Shown: positions 1 to 13,297, counted from the stretch's first letter. The stretch is 64,000 nt of DNA from a phage (GCA_014685065.1 GCA_014685065.1_4092.1); one strand, 5' to 3'. Notes: generated by a model from the sequence alone, not told the origin. Translations and numbers: made by a program.

Positions 1-753
1 ACAATTGACCAACATGACGTTCCACAAGAAGGTCAAGAAGGTGGTTCTAGTGAACAACAAAAACGCGATTATATGGATGATTTCAAAACAGCAATGATGA
101 ATGCTGCACGTGCAGGTGGTACACCAGCAGAAATCGCTCGTATGATTAACAACTTCAAAGAACCAAAGATTGACTGGCGTTCAAAACTTCAACGTACTCT
201 TCGTAGTTGGTTGAAGTCTGATGCAACTTATCAAAATCCAAATCGCCGTTCATGGGGTGCTGGTTTTGGTTCTAATGGTTCATTCTATGGTAATCCAATT
301 TACCCAGGGATGAAACCAGATGATGATATTGATATTGCGATTGCACTAGATGCTTCTGGGTCTATTTCTGAAGATATGCTTCGTGATTTCATTAGTGAAG
401 TTCTTGGCATCACTAAACAATTCAAACAGTTTAAGATTCGTATCATGACTTTTGATACTGAAGTTTATACTGTAAAGGATTACAAAACTGGCGAAGAACG
501 TAAGATTCTGGAATATCCAGTAAAAGGTGGTGGTGGTACTGACTTTGAAGCAGTATGGGTTCATATGAAGAACGACAACTACAAGCCTAAACAGCTTGTA
601 ATGTTTACTGATGGTGAACCGTGGCAGTCATGGGGTGATCCAAACTACTGTAAAACATTGTTCGTGATTCACAGTAACCCAAATAAAGTTGCACCATTTG
701 GTGAGACTGTACACTACGAATATGAAGCTGATAAAAAGCGTCAACGTAGTTAA
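1..753 (+). CDS. von Willebrand factor A (VWA) domain protein, 5' partial
   Basis: Reading frame is open to the window start (no in-frame stop upstream of the ATG at 73); MIDAS-like DxSxS motif (IALDASGSISEDM); intrinsic terminator follows. Confidence 0.6.
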   Translation, partial: TIDQHDVPQEGQEGGSSEQQKRDYMDDFKTAMMNAARAGGTPAEIARMINNFKEPKIDWRSKLQRTLRSWLKSDATYQNPNRRSWGAGFGSNGSFYGNPIYPGMKPDDDIDIAIALDASGSISEDMLRDFISEVLGITKQFKQFKIRIMTFDTEVYTVKDYKTGEERKILEYPVKGGGGTDFEAVWVHMKNDNYKPKQLVMFTDGEPWQSWGDPNYCKTLFVIHSNPNKVAPFGETVHYEYEADKKRQRS

Positions 754-765
754 GTACTAAATAAT

Positions 766-796
766 GAGAACGGAATTTTCCGTTCTCTTCTTTTAT
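766..796 (+). terminator. intrinsic terminator
   Basis: Perfect 8-bp stem GAGAACGG/CCGTTCTC with 6-nt loop followed by TTCTTTTAT. Confidence 0.6.
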
Positions 797-800
797 AAGT

Positions 801-828
801 GGGACAACTTATAAAAATATGATATAAT
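801..828 (+). promoter_or_regulatory. sigma70-type early promoter (GGGACA, 16 nt, TGaTATAAT)
   Basis: -35-like GGGACA 801-806, 16-nt spacer, extended -10 TGATATAAT ending at 828; same architecture recurs at 23342, 46315, 52039. Confidence 0.55.
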
Positions 829-862
829 AGTTAATGTACCAATATACATGGAGAGTATTAAA

Positions 863-1108
863 ATGGAACAAGAAAATAATCAAATTCAACTAACCCTTCT
901 AGACCTAATCAATGCTGCAAAAATCATGGAAGCTGCTGTTGCACGAAACACCTTTAAAGTTGAAGAACTCGTTGAGGTTGCTCCAGTTGTATCTAAATTT
1001 GTTTCTTTTGCAAATGTAGCTCTTGAAGATATTAAAGCACAAGAAGATGCAGCTAAAGAAGAAGCTGAATCACAAGATAGTGAAACTCAAGAAGATAAAG
1101 GAGAATAA
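863..1108 (+). CDS. hypothetical small acidic protein
   Basis: ORF-track frame 848-1108; the ATG at 863 is preferred because GGAGAG sits 7 nt upstream of it, while the ATG at 848 lies inside that RBS. Confidence 0.5.
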   Translation: MEQENNQIQLTLLDLINAAKIMEAAVARNTFKVEELVEVAPVVSKFVSFANVALEDIKAQEDAAKEEAESQDSETQEDKGE

Positions 1109-1110
1109 TT

Positions 1111-1767
1111 ATGGCAGCTATTCGTCATGTTGGTGTAATGCGTAATACAGGTTCTCGTGTTTTTGTTGTTTGGCGTTCACTACCAGATGATCCTGAACAC
1201 TGCCTTATTGTTTATCGTGATTCACTACCAGAAGCATATGTTCACGCAGTAACTGATATTGTTATGGGTCATGGTCAATCTAATATTGATTTGTGGGAAG
1301 TAATGCATAAAATTGGTTATCTCGATGGACGCAAAATGCTAGATGTTCTACACAATATGCAGCATCTACGTCGCGTTCGTACTTGTGACATTGATATGCA
1401 CACTGGTGGTAATAATAAAATTTCTCTTGATGTTCTAAACAAAGCATTAGATGAAAATCAAGCAAAAGTACAAGAAGATGGTAAAGTAAAAGACTTTAAC
1501 CCATTCAATCCACAAGAAGCGGACACTAAAGTAGAAGAAGCTACTATTGTAGAACAACTTCTCACTGATGCACAAAAATATGAAAAACTGGCTAAAGAAC
1601 ATTATGAACGTGCATATAATTTAGAGCCAAGTTTGCGTCCACAAACACAAGTTGTTGAACAACCGAAAGATAGTAAAACAATTTATCTAGAAATTCCAGA
1701 AGGTATTTCACAGACTAAAGCTATTGAGAAAGTAAAACAACTATTTGCAGAACGTAAAGCAAAATAA
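1111..1767 (+). CDS. hypothetical protein
   Basis: 218-aa ORF with AGGAG RBS upstream (aaaggagaataatt ATG); no family recognised. Confidence 0.5.
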   Translation: MAAIRHVGVMRNTGSRVFVVWRSLPDDPEHCLIVYRDSLPEAYVHAVTDIVMGHGQSNIDLWEVMHKIGYLDGRKMLDVLHNMQHLRRVRTCDIDMHTGGNNKISLDVLNKALDENQAKVQEDGKVKDFNPFNPQEADTKVEEATIVEQLLTDAQKYEKLAKEHYERAYNLEPSLRPQTQVVEQPKDSKTIYLEIPEGISQTKAIEKVKQLFAERKAK

Positions 1768-1770
1768 AAT

Positions 1771-2364
1771 ATGAAAAAGAATGAATTAGATGAAGCAATA
1801 AAAGGTTTATCTAATGTATGTTTTAGTGGCGGGGCAGCAGGTGCTGACCGCCTTTTTTCTATCTATGCAAAAAATAATGGATTTGAAGTTATTAATTTTT
1901 CATTCAAAGGTCATGAGCATAGTGTAGATGAAAGTACTATATTAGAAATACCATCCAATATTCTATCTGATATTTCTATATTAAATCAACTAAACATTGC
2001 ATGTTACTCGTTACAGCGAAAAGTACCGAAGCCTGGTTCTTATGTTTACAACTTACTTGCAAGGAATAGTTATCAGATACTTAATACAGAAAGAATATAT
2101 TGTATTGCAAATATCACATCACCAACTAAGGTAAGTGGTGGTACTGCATGGGCAGTACAGATGTATATGGATTCAGTTGAAAATCCTGAAATTTATTGTT
2201 ATGATATGAATTCACGTTCAGTATTTTATTTCGATACAGTACTGAAAGAGTTCACACAAACATTCGTCGTTCCAGCACCACATGGTAACTGGACTGGTAT
2301 TGGTTCACGCAATGCCACCGAAAAACATATGGAACATTTTATTACATTTTTCAAGGAAGAATAA
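1771..2364 (+). CDS. hypothetical protein with glycine-rich Rossmann-like motif (possible SLOG/DprA/LOG-like nucleotide-binding fold)
   Basis: FSGGAAGADRLF glycine-rich motif near the N-terminus and a second SGGTAWAVQ motif; immediately upstream of thymidylate synthase, overlapping its start by 1 nt. Confidence 0.4.
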   Translation: MKKNELDEAIKGLSNVCFSGGAAGADRLFSIYAKNNGFEVINFSFKGHEHSVDESTILEIPSNILSDISILNQLNIACYSLQRKVPKPGSYVYNLLARNSYQILNTERIYCIANITSPTKVSGGTAWAVQMYMDSVENPEIYCYDMNSRSVFYFDTVLKEFTQTFVVPAPHGNWTGIGSRNATEKHMEHFITFFKEE

Positions 2365-3293
2365 TGAAACAACTACAAGAACTATATCAAAAAATTCTAG
2401 ATGAAGGCGTAGAAAGCGTTGACCGTACTGGTGTTGGGACAATCAAACTTATCGGTCAACAAATGCGTTTCGACCTTAACGATGGTTTCCCAGCAGTGAC
2501 GACAAAACGTCTAGCTTGGAAAGCAATGACTTCAGAATTACTATGGTTTATTGAAGGTTCCCATGATGAGCGTCGCCTTTGTGAAATTTTGCATGGAACT
2601 CGTGATACCGAAAAGAAAACAATTTGGACAGATAATTACCTAAATCAAGGCGTTGCTCTTGGTTATACTGGTGGTGAATTGGGTCCAGTGTATGGTAAGC
2701 AATGGCGTGAATGGGAAGATTATAAATTTAGTTCCAGTACTGAAGAAATTCAAGAATTAAAAGATAAAGGATACAAAGTTATCGATTATACTGGTTCACA
2801 TGGTGTTGTTATGAAACGTACAACTGACCAATTACAAGAACTAATCAAAGGTATAAAGTCCGATCCATATGGTCGTCGCCACATTCTAAGTGCATGGAAC
2901 GTTGGTGAGCTTGATGATATGACGTTGCCACCTTGTCATAGCTTTGTGCAATTTTGTGTAGTACAAGGGAAACTAAGCTGCATTCTACATCAAAGATCCG
3001 CTGATCTATTTTTGGGAGTTCCATTTAATATCAGTAGTTATTCACTACTAACTCATATGATTGCACAAATTACTGGTTTAGATGTTGGTGAATTTATTTG
3101 GAATGGTGGTGATTGTCACATTTATAAAAACCACGTTGAACAAGTAAAAGAACAACTACAGCGAAAACCTCGTGAATTACCTGAATTGTGGCTTGATCCT
3201 ACAATTACTAATATTGAAGATTTCACAATGGATTCTTTCAAATTAGTGAATTACAACCCAATGCCTACAATTAAAGCACCGATGGCTGTATAA
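2364..3293 (+). CDS. thyA: thymidylate synthase (ThyA type)
   Basis: Full-length match to ThyA hallmarks: RTGVGT, WFIEGS, active-site PPCHSFVQF, HQRSADLFLGVPFNISSYSLLTHMIAQ. Confidence 0.9.
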   Translation: MKQLQELYQKILDEGVESVDRTGVGTIKLIGQQMRFDLNDGFPAVTTKRLAWKAMTSELLWFIEGSHDERRLCEILHGTRDTEKKTIWTDNYLNQGVALGYTGGELGPVYGKQWREWEDYKFSSSTEEIQELKDKGYKVIDYTGSHGVVMKRTTDQLQELIKGIKSDPYGRRHILSAWNVGELDDMTLPPCHSFVQFCVVQGKLSCILHQRSADLFLGVPFNISSYSLLTHMIAQITGLDVGEFIWNGGDCHIYKNHVEQVKEQLQRKPRELPELWLDPTITNIEDFTMDSFKLVNYNPMPTIKAPMAV

Positions 3294-3300
3294 ACGAAAA

Positions 3301-3327
3301 GGGAGAACTAATGTTCTCCCTTTTTTT
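3301..3327. terminator. bidirectional intrinsic terminator
   Basis: GGGAGAAC-TAAT-GTTCTCCC hairpin followed by TTTTTTT; sits between convergent genes. Confidence 0.7.
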
Positions 3328-3328
3328 A

Positions 3329-5293
3329 TTATCTAATTGTTACCAATGTTCTTCCGTCGAAACGTACATCAGGAGTTGAAGGTATACTAAACACTACGTT
3401 AGTGCCGTTAAACGTAACGCTATCGACCTCAACACGAGTATAGACACCAGGACTAACCTGTTCCTGTATCTCTGCTGTGACGATGTTTGAGGCTGTTACA
3501 GTAAGGGTGTAGTAGTTACCACTTAATACCCAAGATGAAATGGTAAAAGCATCGGTTCTCACTGAACCTGAACCAATCGGAACCCATTGACCTTGAACTT
3601 TTTGCATTGAAGTACGCTCGGTATTTGAGTATGCAATCATACCATCAACGCCAACAGAGTTATCAATAGTTGCTAGTACTGGTAATTGGATACCATATCT
3701 ATTAAAACGTGTTCTTATAGTTCCATTATCATAGATACTTACATCAGCATAATTACCCATTGATAGTTTTAAATCAGAACTAACTAATTGGATTGTACTT
3801 TGATTAGTAGTACTTTCTAATGTAATTATACCATTAGCTAATAGATTTATATTTTTAAATTTATTAGTTGTTCCATTGAAATTAGTGTTTGCTGTAAACG
3901 TACTAACTCCATTAACTGTAATTGTATCTGATGCAGCATCGCCTAATATGGTATTACCTTGAATGTTCAAATTACCACTAGCAGTGATATTACTAGCTGA
4001 TGTATCACCAGTCAATGTGCTTGTACCATCAACCACAATATTACCATGAAACGCACTTTCACCATTTTTAAATTCAACTTGTACTTTATTCATTGAACTA
4101 AATGAAATAATATTACTACTAGCACTTAGTCCAACATTAGTATTGGTTGCATTATCAAATCTTAGTACTGGGGTTGATGCTGGGGTTGAAGTTGTTTGGT
4201 ATAATGTTAATGTTGAATTATTAATTCTAATACGTTCAGTTCCCGCAGTACTGAAACCAATTGCATCATCTGCTGGATGAAACATACCAGTATTAGCGTC
4301 TGACCATTTTGCAGGATCATTACCTGGGTTATTGGTTGGATCAAATGGATTGTTATTAAATGTCAATGCTGGTGCTGCTGCACTACCATACACCACACCA
4401 AAACGCCCTGAGCCGCTTGTTCCATCATTATACATGGAATCACCAGTTCTACGTAAACATTCAATCACAACGTTATCTATGGATGTTTGTACGGTTCCTG
4501 CGTTCGTTCTAAATTGACGATGGTTTGCAATCATTACTGTATTGTCATATAATACAGAAGCAGCAGAAATGCTTGTTCTTGACTGGCGTAGACGTATGTT
4601 TTTATCTTCAGTTATAATGATCCAATCACCATCTGATAGTGCGGTTTGGTTCATTGGAACGCCTGAAGCAAATGGTTTGGTTAAGTCAGCATCTGTTGCT
4701 AAATTTTTAAGACCATCATGACCAGTACTAGGAATAGATGCAGTAATAATTCTTGCAAAAGCGTATGTTACAAGTTTAGCACCAGATATATTTGGATTGG
4801 AGTCAACATAATATAAAATTTCAATCCAATTACCTTGACCAGTTGGGTTCGTAGGTGTAAATGTAACCGGACTTGTTTGTGGGTTATTTGCTTCAAAGTG
4901 TGCTTGTGCTGCATCCATAATACCACGAACAACATAATAATCACCATTTAGTGATGCTGCTGGTGCTGGTAGTGGCGTTTGTGCTAAAGGTGGGTCAATA
5001 TCATCTGGAATAGGATTATATGTACCAACAAACTGCAAACCACTAGTTACTGAATCTGGTAATTGGGAAGTAAGAAGTTTACCATTTGCATCTAAGTTTG
5101 CAAAGCGGCGATATGCCATAGTACCATCTTCAAAATCCAGAACACCTTCAAATGATTTCCATTCCTTATTGTATCTAATCATCCCTGATCTTATTACATC
5201 AGCGGTTTCTTTTGATGGTGCTTTCGGTAACTCTAAAAAAGATTTACTATCAATAATTACACCACCATCACCTCTAATTCGATTTATACTCAT
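3329..5293 (-). CDS. tail fibre protein
   Basis: 654 aa, T/S/G/N-rich beta-rich composition typical of phage fibres; lies in a cluster of fibre genes. Confidence 0.55.
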   Translation of the reverse strand: MSINRIRGDGGVIIDSKSFLELPKAPSKETADVIRSGMIRYNKEWKSFEGVLDFEDGTMAYRRFANLDANGKLLTSQLPDSVTSGLQFVGTYNPIPDDIDPPLAQTPLPAPAASLNGDYYVVRGIMDAAQAHFEANNPQTSPVTFTPTNPTGQGNWIEILYYVDSNPNISGAKLVTYAFARIITASIPSTGHDGLKNLATDADLTKPFASGVPMNQTALSDGDWIIITEDKNIRLRQSRTSISAASVLYDNTVMIANHRQFRTNAGTVQTSIDNVVIECLRRTGDSMYNDGTSGSGRFGVVYGSAAAPALTFNNNPFDPTNNPGNDPAKWSDANTGMFHPADDAIGFSTAGTERIRINNSTLTLYQTTSTPASTPVLRFDNATNTNVGLSASSNIISFSSMNKVQVEFKNGESAFHGNIVVDGTSTLTGDTSASNITASGNLNIQGNTILGDAASDTITVNGVSTFTANTNFNGTTNKFKNINLLANGIITLESTTNQSTIQLVSSDLKLSMGNYADVSIYDNGTIRTRFNRYGIQLPVLATIDNSVGVDGMIAYSNTERTSMQKVQGQWVPIGSGSVRTDAFTISSWVLSGNYYTLTVTASNIVTAEIQEQVSPGVYTRVEVDSVTFNGTNVVFSIPSTPDVRFDGRTLVTIR

Positions 5294-5340
5294 TTAAATA
5301 TTTCCTCAGAATAGATTTATATGATGTATTTATTTTAGTT

Positions 5341-5371
5341 AAAAGAAAAGGCCAAGCATAGACTTGACCTT
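5341..5371 (-). terminator. intrinsic terminator (minus strand)
   Basis: 9-bp stem with one G-U pair (AAGGCCAAG/CTTGACCTT on plus) with T-run on the minus strand; near-identical copy at 6888-6920. Confidence 0.45.
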
Positions 5372-5380
5372 AATATGTTA

Positions 5381-6871
5381 TTAAACTACAGAAACCCCAC
5401 TCATTGAAGGTGGAACGATTTGCTCAGCAATTAATAATAAATTAGTGACTGTAAACTTGCCACCATGTGACATTAACGTAATAGGTGTTCCATTAGTTAC
5501 TAGGTTACCATTTTCATCAACACTTAAAAATGTATTAAATGAAATAGTATCAACTGTGATTGTTGGTGTTCTAACTTGGTTAATATTATTAAATTGAGTA
5601 TTTGTAAAATTAATAGCAAAACTCATATTAGATGAACTAGTAGTCCATGTACCGTATATATTTAATTTGAAATTTAGAGATGAATTGAAATTATAAACAT
5701 TTAGCTTATTACTTGTTGTATTGAAGAAACTATCTAGTGTTCCACTAGTGGGGGTCAATGATTTAAGTATTTGAATTAAATTCTGTTCAATACCATCTGT
5801 GAATTGTATATTTAAGTTTGAATAATATAATTCTCTTTTTCTACGAACTAGGTTAGTAGTATTATTACCATTAACAAATAATCCAGAACTATCTGATGTT
5901 AATATATTACCAGAGGTATTACTTATTTTAGACGAAATAACATTACTGTCAATAGTTATACCATTTCCAGCAGTATATGAGGATGGTCCAGTCGGTACAT
6001 ATAACCCATTTACGTCAGTTGTTAAAGTATTTCCTGGTGTTGTGCTTATTTTGGTTGAAATTGTTTCTGAACTAATTGATATACCAGTACCACCAACGTA
6101 ATTTATTCTTGTATTAGGCACAAACAATCCAGTACTGTCAGTAGATAGTATATTACCAGAAGTAGAACTAATTTTAGCACTTATTATATCAGAATTAATT
6201 GAAATTCCGTTACCAGCATTATAAGTTACAGTATTGTTAGGAACAAATAAACCATTGCTAGTAGAAGATAATATATTTTCTGGCGTAGGGTCAACCTCAA
6301 CACTAATCACTTCATCACTAATTACAATCCCATTACCCGCATTGTACGTTATCGAATTATCAGGTACGAATAGACCCGTACTATCAGTTGTAAGGATATT
6401 TCCTAAAGATGTGCTTACTTTTGATGATATAATATTATTATCTATTTTAATACTGTCACTACCTGTATATGTTACTGTATTATCAGGTACATATAAACCA
6501 TCTTCGGCAATAGTAAGGATGTTATTAGGTGATGTACTTATTTTAGTTGAGATAGTATTATCACTTATTGTCACACCAGTGCCACCAGAATACACAATTG
6601 ATGTATTAGGAACATATAAACCATTAGAATCATTACTAAGAATATTTCCTTGTGTTGAACTGATTTTTGTTGATATTAAATTAGAGGTTATTGATATACC
6701 AGTACCACCTTGATAGTTAATAGTGTTATCTGGAACATATAAACCATCACTTTCATGAATTAAAATATTTTTATTTTTAGAACTAATATCAGGTACTGGA
6801 ATCTTACCTATTAGAACACCGTCATAACTGATATCACCATTTACAATAATATCTGTTCTTATATTATACAT
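5381..6871 (-). CDS. tail fibre protein with tandem ~30-aa repeats
   Basis: At least 9 tandem repeats of the pattern NILSxDSxGL(F/Y)VPxNxxxYxxGxGIxIxxxxISxKIS. Confidence 0.6.
   Translation of the reverse strand: MYNIRTDIIVNGDISYDGVLIGKIPVPDISSKNKNILIHESDGLYVPDNTINYQGGTGISITSNLISTKISSTQGNILSNDSNGLYVPNTSIVYSGGTGVTISDNTISTKISTSPNNILTIAEDGLYVPDNTVTYTGSDSIKIDNNIISSKVSTSLGNILTTDSTGLFVPDNSITYNAGNGIVISDEVISVEVDPTPENILSSTSNGLFVPNNTVTYNAGNGISINSDIISAKISSTSGNILSTDSTGLFVPNTRINYVGGTGISISSETISTKISTTPGNTLTTDVNGLYVPTGPSSYTAGNGITIDSNVISSKISNTSGNILTSDSSGLFVNGNNTTNLVRRKRELYYSNLNIQFTDGIEQNLIQILKSLTPTSGTLDSFFNTTSNKLNVYNFNSSLNFKLNIYGTWTTSSSNMSFAINFTNTQFNNINQVRTPTITVDTISFNTFLSVDENGNLVTNGTPITLMSHGGKFTVTNLLLIAEQIVPPSMSGVSVV
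5560..6780 (-). repeat. in-frame tandem repeat array (~90 bp unit) inside the fibre gene
   Basis: Periodic protein repeats map to this DNA span; the boundaries are approximate. Confidence 0.5.
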
Positions 6872-6887
6872 ATATTTTCCTTATATT

Positions 6888-6920
6888 GAAACAAATAAAG
6901 GCCAACCATAGTTGACCTTT
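6888..6920 (-). terminator. intrinsic terminator (minus strand), paralogous to 5341-5371
   Basis: AAAGGCCAAC-CATA-GTTGACCTTT hairpin with T-rich tract on the minus strand. Confidence 0.45.
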
Positions 6921-6928
6921 ATTATTAA

Positions 6929-7708
6929 TTAACGTATACGTTCAGGAATATCAATACCTTCATATACCCAAGTTGCAGCTTGTTGTGCTTTATAAATTGC
7001 ATCAGGATCTAAATCATTAACTGCATCAATTGCAGCACACTGACGATCACATTCAGCAAACAACTGTTCTACCATCGCAAATGCTTCAGTATATAGTTGT
7101 GTCATTTCAGCAGCAGATAGTTTAACTATTGCATCATCGAGAAATATAGAGACAGTTTCAGCACCAGAAGTTACTTGAGTATAATAATTAAGTAACATTT
7201 GACGACCAGCTAGATCAGTACTATAACGTTGTCCTTTAAACAAATAACCACGATTAATACGTTCACCACGTTCTGCTACAGTTCTGGATTTTAAATCATA
7301 TTTCACATCAGTGATATTCATATCAACGTAATGGTATGTTTTCAGTACTGTTAATGCTTTATACTCTGATGTAGCTTCTTCAATAAATTCAACAACTGGT
7401 TGATTATCATCTTTTAACTTAATAAACTCCAATGGTTGTTCAATAGCATTAACATTGCCAATATTTTTATACACTAACCACCAAAAACCTTCTTCTTTTC
7501 TAACAGCATCATTAGGTTCCACTGGAGAACCATCTTTACTTGAAATACCATAAAGAGTTCTAATATCACTATAAAGATAACGATAGGTTTGTGGATCTTC
7601 TGGTGTAGCACCTGGACGTTCTTTCAATCCTTTTACACCAATTGGGTTAGAAATAATGCTACCCAATTCATAATTTTCTTTTGAATTTCCTTTCACATAT
7701 GTGAACAT
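6929..7708 (-). CDS. hypothetical protein, possibly a tail fibre assembly/chaperone protein
   Basis: 259-aa non-repetitive protein wedged between fibre genes; the role is inferred from position only. Confidence 0.3.
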   Translation of the reverse strand: MFTYVKGNSKENYELGSIISNPIGVKGLKERPGATPEDPQTYRYLYSDIRTLYGISSKDGSPVEPNDAVRKEEGFWWLVYKNIGNVNAIEQPLEFIKLKDDNQPVVEFIEEATSEYKALTVLKTYHYVDMNITDVKYDLKSRTVAERGERINRGYLFKGQRYSTDLAGRQMLLNYYTQVTSGAETVSIFLDDAIVKLSAAEMTQLYTEAFAMVEQLFAECDRQCAAIDAVNDLDPDAIYKAQQAATWVYEGIDIPERIR

Positions 7709-7771
7709 ATAACTACCTCACTTGTTATGATGGTGTCACCCAAAAGAGTGACACCTTTATTATTATAATTA

Positions 7772-10700
7772 TTAAGCTGTACGTTGTGCAATAAACATAT
7801 CTACAACTGGACTTACACCATCATAAATGACTTGGTAAATGGTCACAGAGTTTGCAGTTTTGTTTAGAGTGCCATCAACAACCGCATAAGTACCATCAGT
7901 AGTAAAGTTTCTGTTACCAGTTGCATCTTGTTTCACATAAATGTATACTGAAGATGCTTTACCACCACCGATTAGACCAGTGATTGGTGCTAGAGTTGTA
8001 TCTTGATCAAGGGTGATAAAGTATACGTTGCTAGTACCATCAGGAGTCCAAGTACCAGTTGGTGCAATAACAGAAGAAGTTACTTGATTAGGAATAACAT
8101 CATATTTTTTAGTAGTTACAGTAGTAGTAGTTAAATCAGCATTAGTTGTTGTTAGTTGACCAGTAACTGTTACATTTTTGTCAAACACAGCATTTTCTTT
8201 GAAAGAAGATGTTGCATTAACAGTTAATGTATCAGCAGCAGCGTCACCTAGAACAACACTACCATTTGCAGTCATTAAACCAGTAACAGTTAAAGTACCA
8301 CCTACGGTTGCTGCACCAGTTACAGATGCACTAGCAAGAGTAGCTGCACCAGAAGTAGTAATTGTAGTTACAGAAGTAGCACCAAGGGTAGCAGTACCAG
8401 TTGCAGAAATATCACCACCGACAGTTAGGTTACCAGAAGTAATACCAACAGTTCCTGTGATATTCGCACCACTTGACATAGTAACTGCACCACCGAATGA
8501 ACCAGTAGTAGTTACTTCAAGAGTGTTACCTTTTAGTAAACCAGTTGCAGTAATGCTTGTTCCTGCGGTAATACTAGTACCAGCAGCAACACTGTTAGTT
8601 GCAGTTAAAGATTTAACAGCCACATCAGAGTTAGCTTGGTTTAGCGTTGCGTTTAGAACACCCGTTACTGTAAAGTTACCATTGTTAACTACGTTACCAT
8701 TGATGGTTAAGTTGTTGTTTTGTGAACCAACATCACCAATAGTTGCAGATTTAGAAATCAATTCTGCACCAGATGTGATATTACCTGCTGCACTAATAGT
8801 ATCAGCAGCAACAACAGCATATGGTTCGATAGTTTGACCACTAACATCGATATCAGCGTTGATACCACCGTCTACACGCAAGGAACCTGCGATGTAAGTG
8901 TTAGGGAAAATCTGAACTGTTTCTGGTTGATCACCAATTTTTGTACCAATTACAACGTTCGCACCAGTTTTAACTGCACCAGATGTTGTTAGTGAACCTA
9001 AAGTTGCTTCACCAACTACACCTAATGTACCACCTACGGTTGCGTTATTAGTAACTGCCAAAGCTGTTCCTTCACCGTTAAGGGTGATAGATGGAGCAGT
9101 CGCTGCACCAGTTACGCCCAATGTACCACCTACGGTTGCGTTGCCATCAGAATGTAGTGTAGTAGCTACAGAAAGACTGTTTGCAACTACATCAGTACTT
9201 GCAAGATCCAATGCACCTGGTGTTAATGTACCAGTAATGTTAACATTATTACCAAAGGTTGCTGCACCAGTAACATCTAGAGTTGTACTAAATGTACCAG
9301 AAGTTGCAGAAACAGCACCAGAATCTAGTGAACCGACAGTTGCTTTTCCAGTTACACCTAGTGTACCACCTACAGTTGCGTCGGTTGTTACACCTAATGT
9401 ACCAGTACTAACTTCTTGAGCGGTTGCTTTACCAGATGCAGTAATAGTTGAAGTAGATACTCCCCCAGTTAATGTGCTTGCACCAGTTACTGCTAAAGTT
9501 GTTGCTGCTGTTACGCTGTTCACGTTAAGGTCAGCACCAGCTAGGTTCAAACCACCTTCAGGAATAAATTCACCCTTCACTGTTAGTTTTTGTACTGTAC
9601 TATCACCAGTGACTGCTAGTGTAGATGCAGTTAAACCACCATTCATACTAGCTGCACCAGTTACACCGAGTGTAGTGGTTACAACAGCACTATTAAGAGT
9701 AGCAGTGTCGGAAATATTAGCACTTGGTGCAGCAATAGTCCCAGCATCAACTTGAATACCACCAGTAACAACTTGGATACCACCAGCATTAACAGTGAGT
9801 TTACCAGCAGTGTTTAAGGTATTTGATACAGTTGTAGCACCAGATAGTGTACTTGTACCAGTAACACTTAGATTACCAGAAATTATTGGGCTACCAGTTA
9901 CATTACCAGTTGTTAGAATTAAATCAGTACCTACAGTTGTAGAACCAGTACTTTCTAATGTTACACCAACAATGTTAGAAGAACTTAGGTTAATTGAACC
10001 TGTTACAGTCAAGTCACCATTAACAGTTGCGTTACCTAGTGAATTTAATGATTTCACTGAAACATCAGTAGTGCTAAGGTCAATTACACCCGCAGTTAAT
10101 GTACCAGATACAGCCAAATCACCAGTGATTGCAGTGTTTTTAGTAATAGAAACACTTTCAGCAGCAGAAGTTAGAGAACCAACAGTCAAAGCACCGCCGA
10201 CAGTGGCGTTATTAGTAACGTTAAGTGCAGTACCAACACCAGATAGTGTTGCAGACGCACCATTAACAGCACCAGAGATATTTGCATTTGCAGCAGATAC
10301 ATCACCTGAAACAGCCGCAGTTGTTGCATTTACTGTAGTTGCGGTAATATCAGTACTTTGTACTTTTGGTAGTAGGTTAACACCTTCAGCACTACTAACA
10401 GTGATGATTCCAGCACTTGTTAGAGATTTTACTGATACATCAGCAGCAGATAGGTCTACAGTACCAGAAACAACAAGGTCACCACCAATATTTGCACCAG
10501 CAGTTGTTGTGATTGATTTAGCATTAACATCAGTTGTTGTTAAATCAATAGCACCTGGTGTTACTGTACCAGAAACTGTTAGGTCACCAGTAATAGATGT
10601 ATTATTAGCAATAGATACACCCGCAGTATTACCAATGGTTGGAACTTCAATAGAAACTGCTGTAACTTTACCAGAAGATGTTACATCAGCAACAGAAGTT

Positions 10701-13297
10701 GCACCAGTTACATTCAAATTAGTAATATTCGCAGTAGTAGAACCTAGAGTTGCAATTGTCGCATCAGTACTTTGTAGTTTAGGTAGAACACTACTAATAG
10801 TTGATTCATTACTAACGATTGCACCAGTACTGGTTAGAGATTTAACTGTTACATCAGCAGCAGTTAGGTCTACTGTACCGTTAACGGTTAAGTTTCCACC
10901 AATTGTTGCACCAGCAGTTGTTGTGATTGATTTAGCGTTAACATCAGTTGATGCTAGGTCGATAGATCCAGGAATCACAGCACCACTAACAGTTAAGTCA
11001 CCAGTGATAGAAGTATTATTACCAATTGTAACACCAGTTACATTGGAAATAGATGGAGTAACTAGAGATGCAGTTGTTGTTTCACCACTTACATTTAAAG
11101 TTGTTCCGACTACAACATCAGCACTTGTACGAACAGATGCTAGATTAGATGGACCTGTTACCGCAAGTTCAGTTGCATTAACAGTATTAATTGTTGCAGT
11201 AGTACTATTAAGTACTGGTAAAACGTTGGCGTTAACCAAATCATTACTTTTAACAATACCAGAAGTTGTTACAGATTTAACGTTAAGGTCAGCGGCTGAT
11301 AAATCAAATGACCCTTGAACAACTAAATCACCACCAATTGTTGCACCAGCAGTTGTTGTAATAGAGTTTGCATTAATATCAGTAGTGCTTAGATCTAAAG
11401 AACCTACAGTTAAACTACCAGTAATATCAACGTTTTCAGTAAAGTTAGTATTTCCAGTAATAGTTGGAGCAGAAAGACTTGTAGCACTAATAGTTGTACC
11501 ATTAATAGTTCCACCACTTAGTATACCACTTGCAGTAATAGTTGGAGCACTTACTTCAGTGGATGCAGTAATAGATGGTGCAGATACAGATGTTGTACCA
11601 GTAATAACACCAGCATTAATAGAACCAGCAGATAATGCACCAGATAGATTTGCAGTAGTACCTGCAATATCACCTGTAACGGTTAGTTTAGCACCTACAG
11701 TAGTATTTCCAGTACTTTCAAGAGTTGCACCTTTCACGTTTGCAGCAGCTACAACAGAGTTAGGAGTTAAGTTTTGACCACTAACATCAACAGTTAGGCC
11801 AGTAACAGTACCAGTGAAATCAACATCATTAAGAATAGTTTTACCACCAACTTGTAGGAATGGTGTACCTGGGGCTTGTGTTTCATTACCAGTGATAGTT
11901 AGGTAATCTAGTTTGTTAAGACCGTTACCAGTAATACCATAGGTAGATAGTGAAGCATTACCAAAAGTTGCGGTTTTTAGAACATTCAATGTTGCAGGTG
12001 AAACAACTTCTGATTGAACTTCGTTAGGTAAAATAACAGTTGGGCGTTGGCCTGGTGCTGTATATCCAAATCCTAATTTAACTGCTGCATCTTGACTGTT
12101 TTGACCCAAGCTAATGGATTTGAAAGAAGCAGTACTATTAAAGCCAGTGATATTTGAACCTAAAGTTACTGCACCAGTTAGTGAAGATGTACCAGTAACA
12201 TTCAATGAAACTGCATTAATATCGTCAAGTTGGAATGTACCACCTAGTAGACCAGAAACGTTAATGTTATTAAAGTTTGCGGTTCCTGTACTTTCAATAT
12301 TTGGAATAGTTGCTGTACCAGTAACTTCAAAGTCAGCAACTTTGGTTTTACCCTTTTGAACTTCCAATAGTGGGGTGTCTGGTGATTGAGTATTGTTACC
12401 AGATACAGTTAGGTAATCTAGTTTGTTAAGACCGTTACCAGTAATACCATAAGAAGAAAGAGAAGCGTTACCAAATGTTGCAGATGTCAAAACTGTTAAA
12501 TTTGCAGGTGACATTAATTCAGATTGAATTTCGTTTTGAAGAACTACAGTAGGACGTTTACCCGGAGCACTGTAAGGGAAGCTTAGTCTGAAGGTTTGAG
12601 ATTCAGAGTTGGAACCAATACGAATGTCTTTAAAAGTAGCAGTACTGTTAATACCAGTTACGTTAGCACCGAAAGTCACTGCACCTTGTTGGTTAGATGC
12701 ACCAGAAACGTTCAATGTTACTGCATTTAAGTCAGAAAGATTAAACTGACCACCTAATGTACCACTAATGGTTACATCTTTAAAAGTAGCAGTTCCAGTA
12801 CTACTAATATCGGTTGTACTTACATTAGTAATTTCTGCGGTATTAGCAGTAATTTTATCAAATGCAGCAGTAGTACCAACATCAGCAGTAATATTACCTT
12901 TAAATGCTGTTGTTTCAGCAACTTCTAAGTTTTTAACTTTAGTTGCTTGTAGAGTGGTTGTACCAGCAGTTTGTGTAAAATCAGAACCAACTGATACAGT
13001 ACCGTTAAAGGTAGCGTTTGAATTAATTGTTGCTGTATCAGACCCGACAACTGCACTACCGATTGTAGTATTACCCTCAACACCAAGACCACCAGAAAGT
13101 GTTGCTTTGCCACCAACATCTAAAGTAGATGTAATGTTGGCAGTTGATGATTCAATGGCAGTAAAAGTTGCATTTGCAAAAGTTACAGTACCATTTACAG
13201 TTAGGTTATTATTGAAAACAGCATTTCCTTTGACTAAAAGATCCTTACCAACCGTACCAGCACCAGTAATATCTAAGTCAGTTTTTATTGAGTACAT
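7772..13297 (-). CDS. giant tail fibre protein (1841 aa) with internal duplications
   Basis: Extremely T/G/S/A/V-rich; repeated ~45-aa modules (AIDLxxTDVNAKSITTTAGAxIGGxL) and a duplicated ~170-aa N-terminal segment; GGAGGG RBS before the ATG. Confidence 0.65.
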   Translation of the reverse strand: MYSIKTDLDITGAGTVGKDLLVKGNAVFNNNLTVNGTVTFANATFTAIESSTANITSTLDVGGKATLSGGLGVEGNTTIGSAVVGSDTATINSNATFNGTVSVGSDFTQTAGTTTLQATKVKNLEVAETTAFKGNITADVGTTAAFDKITANTAEITNVSTTDISSTGTATFKDVTISGTLGGQFNLSDLNAVTLNVSGASNQQGAVTFGANVTGINSTATFKDIRIGSNSESQTFRLSFPYSAPGKRPTVVLQNEIQSELMSPANLTVLTSATFGNASLSSYGITGNGLNKLDYLTVSGNNTQSPDTPLLEVQKGKTKVADFEVTGTATIPNIESTGTANFNNINVSGLLGGTFQLDDINAVSLNVTGTSSLTGAVTLGSNITGFNSTASFKSISLGQNSQDAAVKLGFGYTAPGQRPTVILPNEVQSEVVSPATLNVLKTATFGNASLSTYGITGNGLNKLDYLTITGNETQAPGTPFLQVGGKTILNDVDFTGTVTGLTVDVSGQNLTPNSVVAAANVKGATLESTGNTTVGAKLTVTGDIAGTTANLSGALSAGSINAGVITGTTSVSAPSITASTEVSAPTITASGILSGGTINGTTISATSLSAPTITGNTNFTENVDITGSLTVGSLDLSTTDINANSITTTAGATIGGDLVVQGSFDLSAADLNVKSVTTSGIVKSNDLVNANVLPVLNSTTATINTVNATELAVTGPSNLASVRTSADVVVGTTLNVSGETTTASLVTPSISNVTGVTIGNNTSITGDLTVSGAVIPGSIDLASTDVNAKSITTTAGATIGGNLTVNGTVDLTAADVTVKSLTSTGAIVSNESTISSVLPKLQSTDATIATLGSTTANITNLNVTGATSVADVTSSGKVTAVSIEVPTIGNTAGVSIANNTSITGDLTVSGTVTPGAIDLTTTDVNAKSITTTAGANIGGDLVVSGTVDLSAADVSVKSLTSAGIITVSSAEGVNLLPKVQSTDITATTVNATTAAVSGDVSAANANISGAVNGASATLSGVGTALNVTNNATVGGALTVGSLTSAAESVSITKNTAITGDLAVSGTLTAGVIDLSTTDVSVKSLNSLGNATVNGDLTVTGSINLSSSNIVGVTLESTGSTTVGTDLILTTGNVTGSPIISGNLSVTGTSTLSGATTVSNTLNTAGKLTVNAGGIQVVTGGIQVDAGTIAAPSANISDTATLNSAVVTTTLGVTGAASMNGGLTASTLAVTGDSTVQKLTVKGEFIPEGGLNLAGADLNVNSVTAATTLAVTGASTLTGGVSTSTITASGKATAQEVSTGTLGVTTDATVGGTLGVTGKATVGSLDSGAVSATSGTFSTTLDVTGAATFGNNVNITGTLTPGALDLASTDVVANSLSVATTLHSDGNATVGGTLGVTGAATAPSITLNGEGTALAVTNNATVGGTLGVVGEATLGSLTTSGAVKTGANVVIGTKIGDQPETVQIFPNTYIAGSLRVDGGINADIDVSGQTIEPYAVVAADTISAAGNITSGAELISKSATIGDVGSQNNNLTINGNVVNNGNFTVTGVLNATLNQANSDVAVKSLTATNSVAAGTSITAGTSITATGLLKGNTLEVTTTGSFGGAVTMSSGANITGTVGITSGNLTVGGDISATGTATLGATSVTTITTSGAATLASASVTGAATVGGTLTVTGLMTANGSVVLGDAAADTLTVNATSSFKENAVFDKNVTVTGQLTTTNADLTTTTVTTKKYDVIPNQVTSSVIAPTGTWTPDGTSNVYFITLDQDTTLAPITGLIGGGKASSVYIYVKQDATGNRNFTTDGTYAVVDGTLNKTANSVTIYQVIYDGVSPVVDMFIAQRTA
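11800..12800 (-). repeat. tandem ~0.5 kb duplication within the giant fibre gene
   Basis: DNA string GTTAGGTAATCTAGTTTGTTAAGACCGTTACCAGTAATACCATA occurs at ~11898 and ~12408; matching duplicated protein segments (GNASLSxYGITGNGLNKLDYLT). Confidence 0.6.

Follow-up and report, generated by a model that had tools for sequence, protein, structure and literature searches.

A SLOG-fold protein, apparently circularly permuted, encoded beside thymidylate synthase in a RaK2-like jumbo phage, and its possible link to thymidylate metabolism

The DNA considered here is a stretch of 64,000 nucleotides from a phage genome (GCA_014685065.1), referred to as the window, and the gene in question is the open reading frame (ORF) at 1771-2364 on the plus strand, which lies directly before the thymidylate synthase gene, thyA. 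The window belongs to a jumbo phage of the 121Q/PBECO4 type (Asteriusvirus, RaK2-like), with bases 1-6000 at 97-99% identity to those genomes, and the 197-amino-acid product of the ORF is identical to 121Q gp567, the name used below. The protein carries NVCFSGGAAGADRLF and has a glycine motif of the FSGGAAGADR type. Its domain falls among the SLOG families around cpYpsA, YAcAr and DprA, is apparently permuted, and has a modestly novel link to phage thymidylate (dTMP) metabolism. From its conserved motifs, predicted structure and gene neighbourhoods, gp567 is tentatively read, with somewhat less than even confidence, as a stand-alone protein of the YpsA/DprA-like clade that would act on or sense (deoxy)nucleoside monophosphates, whether by LOG-like hydrolysis of an N-glycosidic bond or by binding a ligand as a partner of dTMP-pathway enzymes.

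The ORF is a real gene, with tblastn matches in 86 phage records at 29-100% identity. Its features are given below, and the conservation values were measured in 149 diverse stand-alone members of the family with a median identity of 33% to gp567.

1771-2364, plus strand: SLOG-fold protein, probably circularly permuted, 197 amino acids, homologue of 121Q gp567, phrog_768 (homology, AlphaFold model, profile searches)
1825-1848, plus strand: SGGAAGAD glycine-rich loop after the first strand of the chain, residues 19-26, the GxD signature of the YpsA/DprA clade (S19, G20, A22, G24 and D26 at least 97% conserved)
2062-2076, plus strand: R98-N99-S-Y-Q102 helix motif (RNxxQ, residues 98-102), with RN aligned on DprA RNRII (R98 100%, N99 95%, Q102 97% conserved)
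2137-2154, plus strand: GGTAWA loop, residues 123-128, aligned with LOG PGGxGT and DprA SGsLiT (G123, G124, T125, W127 and A128 at least 95% conserved)
2296-2310, plus strand: GIGSR, residues 176-180, candidate phosphate-binding GSR strand-loop of the kind that opens canonical DprA/SLOG domains (G176, I177, G178 and R180 at least 95% conserved)
2362-2366, plus strand: TAATG stop/start overlap with thyA, one base in common (read from sequence)

On the predicted structure the assignment of gp567 to the SLOG fold is secure. The AlphaFold (AF2) model, built from an alignment of 64 homologues (A1), has a mean predicted local distance difference test score (pLDDT) of 96.9 and a predicted template modelling score (pTM) of 0.92, and consists of alternating strands and helices in one compact domain. 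The model, the Foldseek search and membership of phrog_768 together describe a three-layer alpha/beta Rossmannoid with glycine-rich loops, and the SLOG motif set is present, with GIGSR, SGGAxGAD and GGTAW at least 95% conserved among the 149 members. The top Foldseek match in the PDB is 3imk, the only one at probability 1.0 (E=2e-3, template modelling (TM) scores 0.48/0.58), a structural-genomics 'putative molybdenum carrier protein' of Syntrophus aciditrophicus which we take to be the structure behind the Pfam family cpYpsA (PF12694). The alignment of the model with 3imk is sequential. The domain of gp567 appears to be permuted in the manner of cpYpsA, with the GSR-type strand last, and three relatives of gp567 (P0215, P0225 and P0246) give weak collinear matches to PF12694. 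However, these matches reach 16.5-19.5 bits against a gathering score of 26.2 bits, gp567 itself has no PF12694 match and the TM scores are only 0.48/0.58. Compared with 3imk, the phage family is about 40 amino acids longer, with a hairpin/helix insertion (roughly residues 45-90) and a beta-hairpin that precedes the last strand. There is no DprA, ShosA, LOG or YpsA structure among the top 50 PDB matches of the model. The SLOG/LOG/DprA-like fold that the initial annotation had proposed from the glycine motif is borne out by the model confidence, by 3imk as best match and by the family matches that follow.

gp567 had been described as unassigned, which does not hold, as it matches the PHROGs family phrog_768, named 'DprA-like DNA recombination-mediator protein' (E=1.3e-26, 94.3 bits, residues 4-161 on profile positions 23-181 of 191), and identical RefSeq/GenBank proteins are already named either in this way or as 'DUF2493 domain-containing protein'. 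The lone Pfam family matched by gp567 is YAcAr (PF10686), a YpsA- and cpYpsA-related SLOG family, also labelled DUF2493, that is common in phages; the match covers the SGGAxGAD strand and helix. However, it scores 20.2 bits, below the gathering cutoff of 28.2, and aligns 40 of the 66 profile positions (21-60). gp567 has no match to DprA (PF02481, gathering score 29.6 bits), to NCBIfam or to PADLOC. Among 64 relatives, weak YAcAr matches were found in 28 (best E=1.2e-4) and DprA matches in six, and precomputed Pfam domains are present in none of 106 close homologues. With clusters defined at 50% identity, an exhaustive profile search returned 2,754 representatives at E<=1e-3, of which 712 reached E<=1e-30. 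Judged from these searches, the phrog_768-type family is large and almost entirely phage-borne and passes no Pfam or NCBIfam model. The profile searches gave no assignment to a family unrelated to nucleotide metabolism, which the initial annotation had named as the result that would count against it. It had also remarked that motifs of dihydrofolate reductase (DHFR) are lacking; the Pfam search of gp567 likewise gave no DHFR family match, and that identity was rejected. In the literature, no experimental work on the phrog_768 family and no description of its linkage to thyA or to a deoxynucleoside monophosphate (dNMP) kinase was found.

Canonical DprA/SLOG domains have the GSR strand-loop first and SGxxGxD second. 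In gp567 SGGAAGAD is found at residues 19-26 and GIGSR is C-terminal at 176-180, where the AF2 model has a strand (174-178) followed by a helix (184-191). Since the GSR strand comes first in the canonical order, a C-terminal GIGSR implies circular permutation. When residues 166-197 were moved to the front in silico, three re-permuted sequences gained collinear PF02481 matches that start at the relocated GIGSR and are absent in the native forms, the best of them with 23 bits (E=5e-5, residues 7-156 on profile positions 45-186). The same re-permutation left the YAcAr scores unchanged and did not extend the YAcAr match. A second profile, built from 31 permuted sequences (A2), picked out four DprA entries among the PDB sequences, 3uqz, 5mll, 4ljr and 4ljk, none of which was retrieved with the native family profile. 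The A2 alignments span the artificial junction and set 'tGIGsR-helix-vclSGGAaGaD' against 'avVGSR-helix-vivSGlAkGID', that is, strand 1, helix 1 and strand 2 of DprA. Searches of the PDB sequences with native gp567 and with the native family profile gave nothing relevant, only spurious designed-repeat 'Ika' proteins. From these sequence comparisons the permutation of the domain, with its usual first strand (GIGSR) at the C-terminus, is well supported, though not proven. It is a new observation.

Could gp567 then be what its RefSeq name says, a DprA-like mediator of recombination that binds single-stranded DNA (ssDNA) and loads a RecA/UvsX-type recombinase or protects the ssDNA? Four motifs are shared with DprA (GSR, SGxxGxD, RN and SG..T), the DprA set GSR / SGxxGxD / RN / GGT corresponding to the motifs of gp567, the permuted profile aligns with DprA/Smf (PF02481; 3uqz, 4ljr) over strand 1, helix 1 and strand 2, and the PHROG annotation agrees. 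In phage Cr30 the SLOG gene follows the gp46/gp47 recombination nuclease genes. The domain is also found in a helicase fusion, and fusions of related SLOG domains to SF1B or 3'-5' helicases have been described (10.1101/671271). Jumbo-phage 'DprA' copies have been predicted to bind ssDNA (PMC7824862, PMC9503650), and ShosA, which belongs to the setting of phage defence, provides a precedent for DprA-like proteins that bind ssDNA and RecA (PMC12961424). In the chromosomes of Flavobacterium, Myroides and Paenimyroides, a family member is followed after 3-7 nucleotides by a WYL/WCX regulator. The site of the two genes, with miaB on one side and topA on the other, is conserved, and they may form a bacterial ligand-sensing pair. 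WYL regulators can sense ssDNA, and the pairing beside topA is consistent with the DprA role.

L088 4986-6482, also in L085, L090, L093 and L094: bacterial SLOG-WYL/WCX pair (locus survey)

Against this role, gp567 has no PF02481 match, its strand order is permuted and the scores of the re-permuted forms are sub-threshold. Unlike DprA/Smf, it is a single domain of 197 amino acids that lacks the SAM and C-terminal winged-helix (DML1) domains. Neither DprA nor ShosA is found among the top 50 structural matches, and the protein is acidic, with an isoelectric point (pI) of 5.75 and a net charge of -4; the family median pI is 6.6, so the family is not basic. The genes around the family belong to nucleotide metabolism rather than to competence or recombination, and recombination genes are neighbours at one of 75 surveyed loci versus 49 with enzymes of the dTMP pathway. 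A role as recombination mediator is distinctly unlikely on this evidence. Since gp567 fails the DprA tests on Pfam score, strand order and accessory domains, the RefSeq 'DprA-like' name is a fold label and not a function, and 'DprA-like DNA recombination-mediator' is probably over-specific.

The reading of gp567 as a protein that acts on or senses (deoxy)nucleoside monophosphates draws on its conserved residues and on its gene neighbourhoods. Nineteen positions are 93-100% conserved in the 149 members: S19, G20, G21, A22, G24, D26, R83, R98, N99, Q102, G123, G124, T125, W127, A128, G176, I177, G178 and R180. This set fits the nucleotide pocket of the DprA/YpsA clade, with Q102 and R83 as family-specific additions, and such a strongly conserved polar pocket, as predicted from the alignment, is typical of ligand binding. 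The GIGSR, SGGAxGAD, RNxxQ and GGTAW loops are proposed to come together in a single pocket, whose ligand would be a (deoxy)ribosyl compound with a 5'-phosphate. R180 and R98 would bind the phosphate, and the sugar or base would be bound by D26, N99, Q102 and T125. The chemistry suggested for gp567 is modelled on that of the LOG/PpnN nucleotide 5'-monophosphate N-glycosidases, which belong to the same superfamily. Unlike them, gp567 reads SGGTAWAVQ and has neither the PGGxGTxxE motif nor the conserved catalytic Glu, and no LOG-family Pfam match was obtained. The GxD/E signature of YpsA-clade SLOG domains is shared with the SLOG domain of ThsA (Thoeris) and with B. subtilis YpsA (PMC6459960). 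As these are non-catalytic nucleotide sensors, they provide a model for gp567 as a sensor; however, they have the canonical, non-permuted order and show no detectable sequence or structural match to gp567.

The context survey covered 75 IMG/VR loci with a callable gene of the gp567 family. The thyA gene lies within 6 kb in each of the 14 RaK2-like loci (all with at least 49% identity to gp567) and in none of the others. It is directly adjacent to the SLOG gene in five of them, 121Q and RaK2 included, and an ORF of about 110 amino acids stands between the two genes in the other nine. The intervening ORF encodes a D/E/Y-rich coiled coil (e.g. L009 6592-6936), and many of the RaK2-like relatives have a further ORF of about 100 amino acids just before the SLOG gene (e.g. 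L009 5709-6011); both extra ORFs are absent from the 121Q lineage. In one RaK2-like metagenomic phage (L099 5134-7109) thyA is split into pieces of 219 and 99 amino acids by a GIY-YIG/I-TevI-like gene, an arrangement which resembles the T4 td intron with its homing endonuclease.

Outside the RaK2-like group the partner is a dNMP kinase, a P-loop gene of about 216 amino acids (PF21448, 46-54 bits, cutoff 27.1), which accompanies the SLOG gene in 35 of 61 loci. In 31 of these 35 the kinase gene directly precedes the SLOG gene on the same strand, and in 15 of the 31 the two overlap by 4 nucleotides. The pair is kept across seven clusters at 50% identity (median pairwise identity 43%) and through at least two locus architectures, with the tail sheath gene either divergent upstream or co-directional downstream. 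An orthologue of this dNMP kinase, about 42% identical to that of Atu_ph07, is still present in the RaK2/121Q-type phages, at a distance of 15-16 kb. Because the kinase is retained there but distant, the SLOG gene adjoins two different dTMP-pathway enzymes in different lineages. Single loci have a dUTPase or a dCTP deaminase as neighbour, and one relative (P0146) is fused to a His_Phos_1 phosphatase. The role in (deoxy)nucleoside monophosphate metabolism is favoured because no other gene linkage is as frequent or as deep as that to enzymes which produce or use up dTMP.

In the window, the stop codon of gp567 (TAA, 2362-2364) and the start codon of thyA (ATG, 2364-2366) have base 2364 in common. 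The one-nucleotide overlap seen in the initial annotation is confirmed, and the neighbour is a genuine thyA. Its product scores 340 bits with PF00303, passes the NCBIfam equivalog cutoffs of NF002497 (342.7 bits, cutoff 327) and TIGR03284 (326.8 bits, cutoff 108) and contains the PPCH and PFN motifs. It is about 45 amino acids longer than the 264-amino-acid NCBIfam model, with an insertion at roughly residues 110-155. The two genes appear, from sequence signals, to form the end of a four-gene unit that runs from a candidate promoter at 801-828 through the ORFs at 848-1108 and 1111-1767, gp567 and thyA to a terminator at 3296-3325, in line with the co-expression that had been suggested.

766-787, both strands: bidirectional terminator-like hairpin closing the upstream gp564 homologue gene (9-bp stem on both strands)
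801-828, plus strand: sigma-70-like promoter candidate for the four-gene unit, GGGACA-16-TATAAT with TG (position only)
848-1108, plus strand: ORF of 86 amino acids, homologue of 121Q gp565, phrog_13789, acidic C-terminus (homology, PHROGs)
1111-1767, plus strand: ORF of 218 amino acids, homologue of 121Q gp566, phrog_15894 (homology, PHROGs)
2353-2359, plus strand: Shine-Dalgarno-like AAGGAAG of thyA, within the 3' end of the gp567 gene (read from sequence)
2364-3293, plus strand: thyA, canonical thymidylate synthase, 309 amino acids (Pfam PF00303, NCBIfam)
3296-3325, plus strand: strong intrinsic terminator at the end of the unit (13-bp stem and T-run)

Promoter-like sites are not enriched in the window relative to shuffled sequences, and the candidate at 801-828 is supported by position only. 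The gene of the gp566 homologue stops 3 nucleotides ahead of the start of gp567. An AF2 model of this homologue, made from 40 homologues, has a pLDDT of 80 and a confidently modelled N-terminal domain (residues 11-110 at pLDDT above 90); it gave no PDB match by Foldseek with E below 0.5, and no family annotation or functional clue was found.

The adjacency to thyA could also be incidental packing in a dense genome, with gp567 in an unrelated or purely structural or regulatory role. Overlaps and short gaps are common in the window, where 32 pairs of neighbours lie on the same strand and five of these pairs overlap (three by a single nucleotide), and thyA has its own Shine-Dalgarno sequence; for these reasons the overlap is by itself weak evidence of a special link between gp567 and thyA. 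Another ORF separates the two genes in most RaK2-like relatives, and no function can be recognised for the ORFs at 848-1108 and 1111-1767. However, distant lineages show a second linkage, to dNMP kinase, that is independent of the first and has been kept through rearrangements, and the conserved polar pocket also argues against incidental packing, which is very unlikely.

The gp567 gene appears to share one unit of transcription and translation with thyA, and in most other lineages its orthologue is coupled to the dNMP kinase. On the (deoxy)nucleoside monophosphate reading, the protein may act on or sense a molecule of the (deoxy)nucleoside monophosphate type in the line that supplies the phage with dTMP and deoxynucleoside triphosphates (dNTPs). 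Its likeliest form would be a hydrolase of N-glycosidic bonds that sanitises or redirects the dNMP pool; alternatively, it could be a ligand-binding subunit of the dTMP-pathway enzymes. As to the suggestion in the initial annotation of a nucleotide-processing or modification enzyme, the gene context of thyA and dNMP kinase favours a role in nucleotide metabolism. A catalytic activity does not follow from it, the LOG catalytic Glu is missing, and nothing points to modification of DNA bases. A role in base modification was rejected, as thyA is a canonical dTMP synthase and there is no sign of a hydroxymethylase.

The gene, the layout of its unit, the fold, the conserved motifs and the gene linkages are established, and the permutation moderately so; the ligand, any catalysis and the physiological role are inferred. 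Several observations weigh against this reading. In the 149 members no acidic residue is conserved at the LOG catalytic position, and Q130 and D134 are not conserved family-wide. The pocket motifs cannot separate a small-molecule ligand from DNA, because DprA uses these same conserved motifs to bind ssDNA. The permutation evidence from sequence is statistically weak: the 23 bits of the best re-permuted sequence stay below the 29.6-bit cutoff of PF02481, and the A2 matches to DprA structures each have E=0.025-0.27. The gene linkages are partly inherited and not independent events, and 26 of the 75 loci, a heterogeneous set, have neither thyA nor dNMP kinase. The Cr30 locus and the bacterial WYL/WCX pairs count on the same side, as do a polyprotein of 2,942 amino acids (P0203) with NADAR directly after the SLOG domain, a Bacteroidales locus with an ADP-ribosylglycohydrolase upstream of the family member, and the N4-like Klebsiella phage Pylas, whose virion RNA polymerase polyprotein contains the domain at about residues 980-1144 (L098 6001-6492). 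Since it is embedded in that polyprotein, the Pylas domain is presumably packaged and injected.

Some of these contexts suit a different ligand. Iyer, Aravind and colleagues predicted that viral YpsA-clade SLOG domains sense or cleave signals derived from NAD+ or ADP-ribose (ADPr), and the same survey reported couplings to Macro and NADAR and sporadic fusions, guanylate kinase among the partners (PMC9503650, PMC7824862). gp567 could accordingly be a processor or sponge of ADPr- or NAD+-derived nucleotides that acts against host immunity by binding or cleaving cyclic ADP-ribose-type Thoeris/TIR signals or related ADPr derivatives, which is unlikely but in keeping with a number of the loci. NADAR in P0203, the ADP-ribosylglycohydrolase of the Bacteroidales locus and the NAD synthetase two genes upstream of the Atu_ph07 member point in this direction. 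Among the loci with neither thyA nor dNMP kinase, NADAR and Acb1 occur as neighbours at single loci. The domain is also found within crAss-like giant proteins, and its place there and in the injected N4-like virion RNA polymerase is as expected of early counter-defence cargo. NADAR-like flanks seen by eye in P0215 and P0225 were not counted, as Pfam did not detect NADAR in them. Pfam was mostly uninformative on fusion proteins of medium size. However, the stand-alone form is found predominantly, and with deep conservation, beside dNMP kinase and thyA rather than beside Macro, NADAR or Nudix genes, PADLOC gave no match and nothing related to defence was hit, and the gene in the window is in a unit with thyA beside tail genes and not in an early anti-defence cluster. 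The dNMP, ADPr and ssDNA readings have the conserved pocket in common, and each is favoured by some of the fusions.

The regions on either side of the unit contain other genes. Window positions 73-753 hold the 3' part of the gp564 homologue gene, which carries DUF2201 (VWA-like) and DUF2201_N metallopeptidase domains; its PHROG/RefSeq name 'HNH endonuclease' looks wrong. Downstream, three large tail-fibre-like ORFs on the minus strand (3329-13297) converge on the thyA terminator, and one of them, of 496 amino acids (5381-6871), holds many 'GLYVPDNT...GGTGI' repeat units.

What would the (deoxy)nucleoside monophosphate reading of gp567 mean for the family? It is possible, though rather doubtful, that the permuted SLOG proteins of the phrog_768 type are an unrecognised enzyme of phage deoxynucleotide metabolism and a dedicated partner of dNMP kinase or ThyA. 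Such an enzyme could, for example, be an N-glycosidase of dNMPs, or a hydrolase of a related kind, which clears dNMPs that are modified or not wanted after their release from host DNA and before dNMP kinase phosphorylates them again; polyproteins delivered with the virion and a bacterial operon under WYL control would then be further uses of the module. If the linkage to dNMP kinase, with its lineage-specific switch to thyA, reflects function, gp567 would add a component to the classical phage pathway of dNTP supply. If the protein is instead a processor of ADPr signals or an ssDNA binder, it would bear on phage counter-defence or recombination.

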